Shown here: positions 3,413 through 52,780 of the stretch, in pieces
Layout of the letters: every line of letters begins with the position of its first letter
Position numbering within the stretch: the first letter of the stretch is position 1
DNA from: a virus
Taxonomy: Duplodnaviria > Caudoviricetes
Reading direction: 5' to 3' (one strand)
DNA length: 53,086 nucleotides
Virus record (IMG/VR): IMGVR_UViG_3300030330_004944
Coordinates: 1 to 53,086 of that record
Notes under the pieces: model-generated
What the model saw: only the letters and a program-made list of their open reading frames with translations
Told to the model about the DNA's origin: nothing
Database searches by the model: none
Made by a program: the position numbers and the translations under genes

Positions 3413-4041
3413 GAGAAATAAACCATGGCATTTTGGTCAACAAACGACATAGAACCTAAGAGAAATTTTAGATTTCAAGTAACCCTTGGAGCAGCAAGTA
3501 GCGCACCCGTGCTTTGGTGGGCTAAGACTGTAACAACACCTAGTTTTGATGTTTCTGAGACAGAGCATGATTATCTAGATAACAAATATTATTTTCCGGG
3601 GCGTGTAACTTGGTCAGAGGTTAGTATGACATTGGTCGATCCAATTTCCGTTGATGCTGTTGCACAAACTAACAAAATTATAGTAGATTCCGGATACGCA
3701 ATTAAAGACGGCCCAACTACCACAAAGTCAACTATCTCCAAGGCAAAATCGTCTAATGCTGCTGTGTCGACAATTGCGCCGCTAGCTAACGTTAAAATTG
3801 AAGTGTTGGATGCCGATGGTGTTGTAGTTGAAAGATGGACTCTCAAAGGAGCTTTCATAAAGTCAGCTAAGTATGGTGATTTGGACTATTCCAGTGATGA
3901 CCTCAGAACTGTTGAGCTTTCTTTAAGATACGATTATGCTTTGTGTGATAATATTAGTAACGGCCAGACAACAACAAACTTCAAACCAGTTTAGAACGAG
4001 AAATAAACCATGGCATTTTGGTCAACAAACGACATAGAACC
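3413..4041 (+). repeat. Exact 44-bp direct repeat at 3413-3456 and 3998-4041
   Basis: GAGAAATAAACCATGGCATTTTGGTCAACAAACGACATAGAACC read at both positions. Confidence 0.95.
3425..3994 (+). CDS. Tail tube protein 1 (T4 gp19-like)
   Basis: EPKRNFRF, PGRVTW, ERWTLKGAF, GDLDYSSDD, LRYD; follows the sheath. Confidence 0.88.
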   Translation: MAFWSTNDIEPKRNFRFQVTLGAASSAPVLWWAKTVTTPSFDVSETEHDYLDNKYYFPGRVTWSEVSMTLVDPISVDAVAQTNKIIVDSGYAIKDGPTTTKSTISKAKSSNAAVSTIAPLANVKIEVLDADGVVVERWTLKGAFIKSAKYGDLDYSSDDLRTVELSLRYDYALCDNISNGQTTTNFKPV

Positions 4042-48226: not shown

Positions 48227-48490
48227 GTGCATTACTCTGATGTGAAATTGCCGGAAGATCAAAAAAAACTACTGAACTGCTACATGTTCATAACAGTTCG
48301 ATTAAAATCATTATGGATTGAATATGTTAATTACGTTGAGTCTCCTTTGGGATCTCAAGAATCTTTTTTTTATATAATAATATTCAATGAAATGGATTTC
48401 TTTGAAGGCTTAAGGGCTAGAATTGAAGATAAGCTTCCACCAAAACTTATGAGAAGCATGAGAGCTTTAGATGACTATAGCAGTTGGTAG
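48227..48490 (+). CDS. Hypothetical protein
   Basis: GTG start after SD GGAGG. Confidence 0.5.
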   Translation: MHYSDVKLPEDQKKLLNCYMFITVRLKSLWIEYVNYVESPLGSQESFFYIIIFNEMDFFEGLRARIEDKLPPKLMRSMRALDDYSSW

Positions 48491-48674
48491 GTTGGTCTTA
48501 GTTAGCACGTTCTTTAATAGCGAAGATTTTTTGTGTGTAATCATCTCCGAAGGAAGACCAGAATTTATAGGTGGTCTCGAAGGAACATATTATTACAAAG
48601 TCTATTGTTTTAAAACCAAAGAGACTTTCTTGTGCTTCAACTACGAGATGACCATAATACCTACCGACCAGTAG
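48471..48674 (+). CDS. Small SH3/KOW-like protein
   Basis: IAVGRLVLV..CVII..YKVYC. Confidence 0.5.
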   Translation: MTIAVGRLVLVSTFFNSEDFLCVIISEGRPEFIGGLEGTYYYKVYCFKTKETFLCFNYEMTIIPTDQ

Positions 48675-48756
48675 ATTTTTCCATTATCTACTCATGGGTA
48701 GGTAAAATTTTAACTAACTTGCATAAAATCGTTTGTCAAGTTTCATAAAACCCATC

Positions 48757-48791
48757 TTGCAAGAAGTGTGCCAATAGTTCTTTACATAACT
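48757..48791 (-). promoter_or_regulatory. sigma54 (-24/-12) consensus site, copy 1
   Basis: Minus strand AGTTATGTAAA-N6-TTGGCACACTTCTTGCAA. Confidence 0.7.
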
Positions 48792-48822
48792 GAAGAACCT
48801 TAGAAGTGTTTCTATGAATACT

Positions 48823-48857
48823 TAGCAAAAACCGTGCCAAAAAAATTTTACATAACT
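48823..48857 (-). promoter_or_regulatory. sigma54 consensus site, copy 2
   Basis: Minus strand AGTTATGTAAA-N6-TTGGCACGGTTTTTGCTA, a full TGGCACG-N4-TTGCW match. Confidence 0.75.
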
Positions 48858-48911
48858 TCCACGTTTTTAGCAAAGTTGCATAAAGTTTATGAAAGTTACA
48901 TAAAATGGTGG

Positions 48912-48946
48912 TTGCAAGAAGTGTGCCAAAAAAAGTTTACATAACT
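48912..48946 (-). promoter_or_regulatory. sigma54 consensus site, copy 3
   Basis: Minus strand AGTTATGTAAA-N6-TTGGCACACTTCTTGCAA. Confidence 0.7.
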
Positions 48947-49130
48947 AAACTGCTTCCTTGCGCACCAGAGCACGTTTTTGCCTACTTTGGAGGTAAGTGG
49001 CATAAAACTATAACAAACTTTCATAAATTTTATATCATACTTATGAGTAGATAAAAAACTTTTACTTTTTTTCTTGACAAAGTCTTTGATATATTATAAG
49101 AGTATAGTATGAAAACTTTCTGGAGAAAAA

Positions 49131-49355
49131 ATGCGAATAGCAAAAACACTAGATGATTTACCTATTGGAACACCAATTGAGATAAATGGTGCGTATAAAA
49201 TACATAAAGGAATAGTGTGTAGAGTAAGGCGTGCAGCAGAGCCAGAGGTGGTGGTTCTTTTTTCCGATGGGTCTGAATTGACTTACTATGAGGAAGACTT
49301 GATAACCGAGCAGATACAGATTTTGGAGACAAAGTGCAAAGAGCAAAAACAATAG
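49131..49355 (+). CDS. Small SH3-like protein (paralog of next gene)
   Basis: MRIAKTLDDLPIGTPI..GIVC..VLFSDGS. Confidence 0.65.
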   Translation: MRIAKTLDDLPIGTPIEINGAYKIHKGIVCRVRRAAEPEVVVLFSDGSELTYYEEDLITEQIQILETKCKEQKQ

Positions 49356-49540
49356 AAGATTTACCCATAGGCACAGCTATAAGTTGGGATGGGCTTGATA
49401 TAGGAATCGTGTGTAAACACGGGATATATGGTTGTGGTGATAGATTCATAGAGATACTGTATACAGATGGAAGTCGTATCCCCTATCATCATCGTGAGAT
49501 AGAAATAGGCAATTTTTTAATTTTGGGGTTAGAGTCATGA
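49334..49540 (+). CDS. Small SH3-like protein
   Basis: MQRAKTIEDLPIGTAI..GIVC..ILYTDGS. Confidence 0.65.
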   Translation: MQRAKTIEDLPIGTAISWDGLDIGIVCKHGIYGCGDRFIEILYTDGSRIPYHHREIEIGNFLILGLES

Positions 49541-49710
49541 AAGAACTTAAAAAGGGTGACTTAATAATATGTTTTAATAAAAACACTGGCTTTGAAAGTC
49601 TTGGCTATATTAGGGCAATATGGGGGGACGATACATGGATCGTCTATATTTTTAAAAATGCGGGAATTGGGGTTTGGACAAAATCTCATATAAAATACTT
49701 GACAATTTAA
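49537..49710 (+). CDS. 57-aa SH3/KOW-like protein (not in ORF track)
   Basis: MKELKKGDLII..LGYI..WIVY; ATGA overlap. Confidence 0.55.
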   Translation: MKELKKGDLIICFNKNTGFESLGYIRAIWGDDTWIVYIFKNAGIGVWTKSHIKYLTI

Positions 49711-49726
49711 ATGAATAGGTTATATT
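49699..49726 (+). promoter_or_regulatory. sigma70-like promoter
   Basis: TTGACA-16-TATATT. Confidence 0.75.
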
Positions 49727-49754
49727 ATAAATACCAACACCGGAGAGCAAAAAA

Positions 49755-52574: not shown

Positions 52575-52726
52575 AAGTAGGTGATTTGGTTTACTGTACT
52601 GATTATGAACAGAGTTGGGGGATTATCTTGGCGGAATGTATGAACCAATATGAAATATATTGGATGGATGGTGATCGCTCATGGATCTTTAAAAGGGCGG
52701 TCAAAAAATATAAAAAAAATACTTGA
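52571..52726 (+). CDS. 51-aa SH3/KOW-like protein (not in ORF track)
   Basis: MKVGDLVYC..WGII..YEIYWMDG; SD GGAGG. Confidence 0.65.
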   Translation: MKVGDLVYCTDYEQSWGIILAECMNQYEIYWMDGDRSWIFKRAVKKYKKNT

Positions 52727-52750
52727 CAATTTTAAGCAACAGGTTATACT
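52723..52750 (+). promoter_or_regulatory. sigma70-like promoter of uvsE
   Basis: A-tract, TTGACA-16-TATACT. Confidence 0.8.
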
Positions 52751-52780
52751 ATAAACATCACAACAAAACATGGAGATAAC

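Follow-up and report, generated by a model that had tools for sequence, protein, structure and literature searches.

Among bacterial promoters, only the class read by the sigma-54 (RpoN) form of RNA polymerase stays completely silent until it is activated by an ATPase, and phages are thought to use sigma-70, sigma factors of their own or polymerases of their own. The locus described here belongs to an uncultured phage (Duplodnaviria; Caudoviricetes) known from IMG/VR virus record IMGVR_UViG_3300030330_004944, a linear record of 53,086 bp with a completeness estimate of 29%, the whole of which is called the window below. In a 456-bp gap between two of its genes (48675-49130), three 35-bp repeats read, on the minus strand, AGTTATGTAAA-N6-TTGGCAC-N5-TTGCW, i.e., an 11-bp box set 6 bp from a core that resembles the -24/-12 element of sigma-54 promoters; each box with its core is called a unit.

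Bacterial RpoN promoters such as those of pspA/pspG and glnAp2 share with these units the -24/-12 TTGGCAC-N5-TTGCW element, an R that follows TGGCAC and a T-rich run ahead of TTGC; TTGGCATGATTCTTGCA, a site of a 141-kb relative, agrees at all but one of 17 positions with the pspG site that the available part of a study of E. coli lists (Bonocora et al., 2015; PMC4591121). Unlike the bacterial promoters, the phage units have no downstream gene and are always antisense, stand two to four in tandem, down to 48 bp apart, add an invariant 11-bp box covering about -44 to -34, and lack a recognisable enhancer pair; a search of phage records gave no activator gene for them either. E. coli itself has many silent intragenic or antisense sigma-54 sites, with a sense bias of 68%, and sigma-54 holoenzyme had no roadblock effect there, as far as that part of the study goes (Bonocora et al., 2015; PMC4591121). 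The silent sites, too, match the consensus and drive no neighbouring gene; a part of them is antisense, and they are conserved and, unless an activator is present, mostly inactive. As described in that part, however, they are single, mostly intragenic and sense-biased, whereas the phage sites form intergenic arrays, antisense in every scorable cluster, with a co-factor box. Among phages, a sigma-54-like promoter was reported for Pseudomonas phage YuA (bioRxiv 10.1101/2023.10.13.562163). YuA and the present phage would be alike as phages that have no polymerase of their own and use a promoter of the host sigma-54 type, but the available part of the YuA report describes one such promoter for phage transcription and neither a conserved antisense array nor a linked box. 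A literature search, with supplementary promoter lists outside its scope, found no description of conserved antisense sigma-54 arrays in phages; on phages and sigma-54 it found only the single YuA promoter and phage genes for sigma-54-related proteins.

In phage T4, MotA and AsiA form a phage factor that redirects host sigma-70 polymerase at sense middle promoters. If the box binds a phage protein, the likeness, by analogy only, would be that of a phage factor which sits at a set distance from a sigma element of the host and retargets the polymerase; T4 works with sigma-70 and sense promoters, whereas the units are of sigma-54 type and antisense, and no gene like those of MotA or AsiA came up here, where no search was aimed at them. 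T4-type phages also have promoter-early stem-loop cassettes, in which the early promoters are of the sigma-70 type and sense, and these cassettes share with the present locus the repeated modules with hairpins and promoters between small early-gene cassettes; unlike them, the modules described here add antisense sigma-54 sites to the sense sigma-70 promoter. The interest of phages in the sigma-54 machinery is only now under study, as in a preprint whose available part describes a T4-type phage AAA+ protein with the shape of an enhancer-binding protein, without the sigma-54 contact loop (10.64898/2026.10.06.757011). The present case adds a co-factor box at a rigid distance, a sigma-70 promoter of the same orientation, Fur boxes as partners and a clade of this size. 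Selection in a widespread clade of marine phages maintains sigma-54 sites of consensus sequence that invariably face backwards and are invariably linked to a box, which points to an undescribed layer of gene control or to the capture of a host factor, and the sigma-54 claim would narrow the host range of an uncultured phage group.

Three antisense units match the sigma-54 consensus

On its left the gap adjoins a 67-aa gene, whose stop is at 48674, and on its right a 74-aa gene that begins at 49131. The initial annotation, made from the sequence alone, took it to be non-coding, and 48675-49130 indeed holds no credible plus-strand gene, a 49-aa open reading frame (ORF) across the repeats being probably spurious; counting ORFs of at least 45 aa, the window has only two gaps of more than 200 bp. 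All credible genes of the window lie on the plus strand, and the units read on the minus strand. Unit 1 occupies 48757-48791, with box AGTTATGTAAA at 48781-48791 followed by N6, TTGGCAC, N5 and TTGCAA; unit 2 occupies 48823-48857 (box 48847-48857, core TGGCACGGTTTTTGCT) and unit 3 48912-48946 (box 48936-48946, core TGGCACACTTCTTGCA). Transcription from sigma-54 promoters starts 12 nt beyond the C of the GC, which would place the starts at about 48747, 48813 and 48902, respectively.

Repeat and sequence inspection bore out the three positions. The copies are 76-88% identical, and their differences lie in the N5 and N6 spacers and in the flanks while the blocks stay constant, much as had been noticed at the outset. 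Exact matches to TGGCAC-N5-TTGCW number three in the 53,086 bp, all on the minus strand and inside 171 bp, where 0.05 would be expected by chance, and none of 100 shuffles reached that number; the exact 11-bp box is found at these three places only. In each unit the GG and GC dinucleotides within the core stand exactly 10 bp apart, and the agreement with the -24/-12 consensus, which had been claimed, is perfect in all three. Judged from the sequence, it is likely that the units are recognised by sigma-54. Two other readings of the units were rejected. Neither strand offers a sigma-70 reading with a -10 at workable spacing, and an 80-aa ORF that spans the units in loci L003 and L014 splits in the window into pieces of 45 and 42 aa, with the units in different frames.

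The box-to-core distance and the polarity are kept in relatives

The full composite pattern was found in 17 stretches of 14 IMG/VR contigs and in at least 119 metagenome stretches; the metagenome loci analysed number 80. When the core was relaxed, the box stood at the same offset in 54 of 58 distinct contexts; two of the four contexts without it lie within long ORFs (position 1533 of relative G001 and position 1352 of the window), and all four look like chance or degenerate sites. The spacers carry 0.1-1.1 bits of information, versus 1.4-2 bits for box and core, the core positions being fixed by the search. Conservation also extends to positions outside the search patterns, namely the R after TGGCAC, TT before TTGC and AAG after TTGC, and the start region (-3 to +1) is about 85-89% A+T.

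A search for the box only, in three whole records (G000, G001 and G004), gave 17 matches, 15 of which are followed at the fixed distance by GGCAY-N5-TTGCW. Among 64 box contexts outside the retrieval pattern, 45 have a core at the fixed offset, none has one elsewhere and 19 have none; for all box contexts, the core is at the fixed offset in 187 of 206 and at another offset in none. Since non-matching box contexts give the core at one offset or not at all, the 6-bp spacing is rigid, and relatives keep it, together with GG-N10-GC, while the spacers drift. Over all IMG/VR and analysed metagenome loci, unit-to-unit spacings cluster at 48-50, 57-59, 66-68, 84-89 and 146 bp, with a step size near 9 bp.

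The polarity is equally strict. TTGGCAC-N5-TTGC occurs 10 times in reverse and never forward in G001 (the 141-kb relative), and eight times forward and never in reverse in G004; a control with the reversed pattern gave no match. The earlier statement that the sites point against the phage genes holds for relatives as well, with units antisense to the local genes in 21 of 21 box-bearing clusters from 15 sources and in all 47 scorable metagenome loci (33 of the 80 were unscorable). Clusters consist of one to four units and sit in intergenic gaps of the small-gene region, and the structural and replication parts of the window contain no cluster; one relative has five such clusters inside 22 kb. 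These gaps are built alike: first a cassette ends, in many cases with a hairpin, then come one palindrome, the backward units, another palindrome and a tract rich in T or A, and last a rightward TTGACA promoter-like site and a GGAG ribosome site. By a loose pattern, a rightward sigma-70-type site stands behind 15 of the 21 clusters.

A single full composite unit was also seen in a distant complete phage (G002; 248 kb, terminal repeats), where it lies antisense within a 101-aa ORF (L049, 3740-3773). The flanks of this type of single unit are conserved in three contigs (L049, L018 and L090).

Candidate readers of the units

Five phage records, one of them 100% complete and distant, were searched for the proteins that might act on the units. 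They gave no Sigma54_DBD or Sigma70_r2 gene and no true Sigma54_activat (enhancer-binding protein) gene. For this reason host sigma-54 holoenzyme is the simplest reader, and the reader of the units is likely to be the RpoN holoenzyme of the host. Family PF00158 was matched in two of the five records, at 15 bits only and below the cut-off, and the protein concerned in L020 is of the AAA_5 type, with no GAFTGA loop seen in its sequence. In L020 (384-893 and 1486-2547; about 92-94 kb of G001), and also in G004 (L019), a protein with a LexA DNA-binding domain (169 aa) is encoded about 600 bp upstream of the AAA_5-type ATPase (353 aa).

The partner of the box may be of another origin. A search of the genomes of 185,579 species for the composite motif, with degenerate letters, returned one match, within a membrane-protein ORF of a Peregrinibacteria metagenome-assembled genome, which we treat as chance (our own chance estimate is 0.5). 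The box is not a motif of host genomes, and a phage-encoded protein is its likelier partner; Pfam and PHROGs searches with 20 small neighbouring proteins gave no DNA-binding candidate. A host of proteobacterial type would fit, given the canonical sigma-70 promoters (49699 and 52723), the GGAG ribosome sites and the Fur-box-like sites of the relatives.

Backward promoters as the favoured role

In relatives, a sigma-70-type site of the same direction (TTGACA-N16-18-TAnnnT) stands behind the last unit in 33 of 94 distinct downstream contexts, 16 of the 33 being perfect TTGACA-N17-TATAAT and 29 beginning 30-39 nt after TTGC; no oppositely oriented site was found in this downstream stretch in the 94 contexts. 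The backward promoter of L048 (4066-4094) matches the consensus at 12 of 12 positions, with a TG, and has a counterpart in L003 (4940-4912). The window has a promoter-like site of this type at 48711-48739 on the minus strand (TTGACA 48739-48734, 17 nt, TAGTTA 48716-48711), and a palindrome begins at about its expected start. Because a co-oriented sigma-70 promoter stands behind the last unit in relatives, backward transcription looks designed.

Of the four roles proposed in the initial annotation, the evidence thus leans to backward promoters, or an antisense switch; a passive decoy or roadblock is less favoured, and an origin has no support from GC skew. Tentatively, then, we favour the reading of the units as activator-dependent antisense promoters within a divergent control region. 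The 456-bp gap would be that region, and the three repeats would be genuine landing sites of host sigma-54 RNA polymerase, each coupled at 6 bp to a box probably held by a protein specific to the phage clade. Dependent on an enhancer or activator, the units would fire backwards, in tandem with the sigma-70-type promoter of the same direction, and the product would be a non-coding transcript antisense to the preceding gene block (nearest gene, 48471-48674), starting at, or crossing, a palindromic operator or hairpin at 48658-48704. This would amount to a damping or insulation of the upstream block that is silent until activated and gated by the state of the host, while a rightward sigma-70 promoter runs the small early genes. 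That sigma-54 holoenzyme binds, that the transcript exists and silences, and that a protein sits on the box are inferences from the sequence.

Several observations weigh against this reading, beginning with the negative search of the phage records for an activator gene. The sole enhancer candidate is a palindrome roughly 110 bp upstream of unit 3, which is no clear enhancer. The presence of RpoN in the host would follow from the sites themselves. In the direction of the sites, ORF, Rfam and terminator scans gave no gene or defined RNA: no minus-strand ORF of at least 30 aa lies to the left of the units down to 47587, in agreement with the earlier remark that there is none for them to serve, and no intrinsic terminator was found on that strand after the backward sites of relatives. 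A non-coding antisense RNA behind the sites is possible, but none of the 20 listed runs that hold the stretch is an RNA run. The -10 of the window's backward sigma-70-type site, TAGTTA, is weak. In relatives with units packed down to 48-50 bp, the start of one unit falls a few bases before the box of the next, and such packing fits simultaneous closed complexes better than efficient tandem firing. Finally, most instances were retrieved by patterns that fix the core, so that the conservation of the core is partly by construction.

Two observations concern the backward sigma-70 promoters themselves. At L048, L003 and about 30 metagenome loci they are antisense to all neighbours, with no ORF behind them, and a strong non-coding or antisense transcript is predicted. 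In L046 (about 3573-3583), L003, L048 and contexts of the L116 type, an 11-bp box stands alone, with no sigma-54 core, at the end of an upstream 64-aa ORF, whose stop codon it apparently overlaps. This box closely follows the backward promoter, and a protein bound to it could stop the transcript of that promoter.

Alternative roles

Possible, though on balance unlikely, is that the units only bind, sigma-54 or its holoenzyme being kept in a silent closed complex that never fires. The array could be a sponge, taking up a host factor in short supply as the phage DNA multiplies, or, between cassettes, a complex with an architectural or insulating role; the box protein would add affinity. The lack of an activator gene and of a clear enhancer speaks for such an array, as do the tight packing, to 48-50 bp, and the preferred spacings up to 84-89 bp, the 12 box-linked sites of a 78%-complete relative, the confinement of the sites to intergenic gaps of the small-gene region, never before a gene, and the precedent of the many transcriptionally silent sites of E. 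coli in the part of the study available (PMC4591121). A sponge, however, needs no strict polarity, and the 21 clusters and 47 loci are all antisense; the start regions are rich in A+T; and a roadblock, tested in E. coli, went unsupported in that same part (PMC4591121). Nor does a passive decoy explain backward transcription that looks designed, since the consensus sigma-70 promoter of the relatives shares its direction.

In a further reading, which seems distinctly doubtful to us, a phage protein on the box would capture host sigma-54 polymerase and either fire it with no need of a classical enhancer-binding ATPase or lock it in place. If true, this would be an appropriation of sigma-54: a whole clade of abundant marine phages would own a promoter class that is private and tightly silent, and would use it to control its gene blocks by antisense. 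In relatives it would be wired with host Fur sites into sensors of the iron state.

It is improbable that a protein encoded by the phage, or a polymerase that the phage modifies, reads the 33-bp unit as a whole. Taken on the gene strand (GCAA-N5-GTGCCAA-N6-TTTACATAACTC), the unit might then be, for instance, a promoter of the middle or late type, with plus-strand starts just downstream of CATAACTC, and the likeness to sigma-54 promoters would be a matter of mimicry or coincidence. On the gene strand the units do lie upstream of cassettes, as tandem promoters would, the box is clade-specific, with one chance-level match among the species' genomes, and the records searched are incomplete except for the distant one. 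Against this, 11 of 11 consensus bases with an exact 10-bp distance from GG to GC are very unlikely to arise by chance (0.05 expected per window), the gene-strand reading matches no sigma-70 spacing, a sigma-70-type promoter already stands behind most clusters (15/21), and no sigma-like gene was found.

The replication origins of T4 and T7 are primed by transcription, and by analogy the backward promoters might fire into A+T-rich, iteron-like pairs of boxes to give a primer or an R-loop. Matches to AGTTNCATAAA with at most one mismatch number 13 in the window, seven of which fall in 48717-49027 (six plus, one minus), and the three exact matches are all within 48717-49027. The seven half-boxes, at 48717, 48739, 48874, 48886 (the minus-strand one), 48894, 48996 and 49017 (repeat families D3, D5 and D6), answer to the extra half-boxes that had been seen between the units; the six plus-strand ones are paired, 20-22 bp apart, and all have AGTT...TAAA in common with the sigma-54-linked box. 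These pairs, the A+T-rich arrays with tandem promoters of one direction, transcripts that would be untranslated, and a phage that encodes a DnaB-like helicase, a DnaE-type polymerase and a UvsX-like recombinase would all suit an origin. The cumulative GC skew, however, rises steadily through 47-51 kb without a turn, no initiator gene was recognised beside the region, the five clusters within 22 kb of one relative include dispersed ones without half-box arrays, and backward priming would send a fork head-on into all genes; we give an origin little credence.

That the units mainly serve as signals by which mobile regulatory cassettes recombine or are shuffled, with protein binding secondary, is highly improbable: near-identical units do stand beside different small-gene cassettes in G001, G004 and G005, with hairpins and palindromes, but selection holds the exact sigma-54 consensus bases and spacing while the rest drifts, which homology for recombination would not demand.

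Palindromes, hairpin and rightward promoter of the gap

The initial annotation had the block bracketed by inverted repeats. Arms of 17 nt, 88% complementary, do exist at 48684-48700 and 49038-49054, but they are two copies of a palindromic, operator-like site of the ATCTAC-N6-GTAGAT type and not the ends of a mobile element. An element with terminal inverted repeats was rejected on three grounds: the arm site occurs a third time (48659-48676), there is no transposase, and relatives have the orthologous region at a fixed place between the same genes. The DnaA-box, IHF and TyrR-box consensus sequences, considered for the box and the palindromes, fitted no more than partially.

The third copy pairs with 48686-48704 in a hairpin with 19-bp arms. 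The two neighbouring palindromic sites (48659-48676 and 48686-48703) and this hairpin (48658-48704; z-scores -2.5 and -3.8) span the stop codon of the 67-aa gene and lie where the predicted backward transcripts would start or pass; no T-run follows the hairpin on either strand, and no Rfam family was found in the region. The right-hand site, TACTTATGAGTAGATAA (49038-49054), is the palindrome named above as enhancer candidate, and it stands about 20 bp upstream of a T-rich tract and the TTGACA of the rightward promoter, an arrangement also seen in L008 and L011. This rightward sigma-70-type promoter-like site (49074-49102, plus strand) consists of TTGACA at 49074-49079 and either TATAAG, at a distance of 15 nt, or TAAGAG, at one of 17 nt; GGAG and then the start codon ATG (49131) lie downstream, and the layout recurs in relatives.

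Fur-box-like palindromes of relatives

The dispersed clusters of relatives are bracketed by other palindromes, which are Fur-box-like. Compared with the 19-nt Fur-box consensus, a sequence that occurs together with 'Fur box' in 50 papers, and with at most three mismatches allowed, 20 of 103 loci contain 52 matches, 44 of which are no more than 250 bp from a unit, and shuffled loci gave none; two are exact 19/19 copies, one of these in the context of L130. Arrays of one to four such palindromes flank or follow the units in L130, L044 (100.4-104.5 kb of G001), L047, L052, L086, L089, L105, L114, L125 and L127. At the same threshold, the window itself has no Fur box. The arrays suggest an input of the iron state into early control regions of these phages. 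A further recurrent palindrome, GGACA-N5/6-TGTCC, lies beside the -35 of rightward promoters in L047 (about 52.2 kb of G004), L061, L065, L072 and L003 (about 5300).

The phage, its clade and the neighbouring genes

Besides the replication proteins named above, the window encodes a tail sheath, a ribonucleotide reductase and GroEL; no tRNA genes were found in the phage. The metagenome runs that hold the stretch are marine only. A DNA search of 50,697 phage records for isolated relatives gave no match, and the polymerase and sheath reach 31-41% identity at best, to phages of unrelated hosts. The phage GroEL (43545-45119) has at least 120 relatives at 67-97% identity in marine and other metagenomes, on contigs of up to 191 kb, from which the clade appears abundant and mostly unexplored.

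The last gene of the upstream block (48471-48674, plus strand) encodes a small beta-rich protein of 67 aa that is kept in L008 and L011 and has no PHROG or Pfam match. Within the downstream small-gene block, near-consensus plus-strand sigma-70 promoters lie at 49699-49728 and 52723-52752 (TTGACA, 16 nt, TATATT or TATACT), with no sigma-54 units adjoining them. The block opens with the 74-aa gene (49131-49355, plus strand), which has a tandem paralogue at 49334-49540; the two paralogous genes (74 and 68 aa; 49131-49540) are part of a small-gene run without a family match, and their first 60 bp, including the ribosome site, are 80% identical in DNA (repeat family D2).

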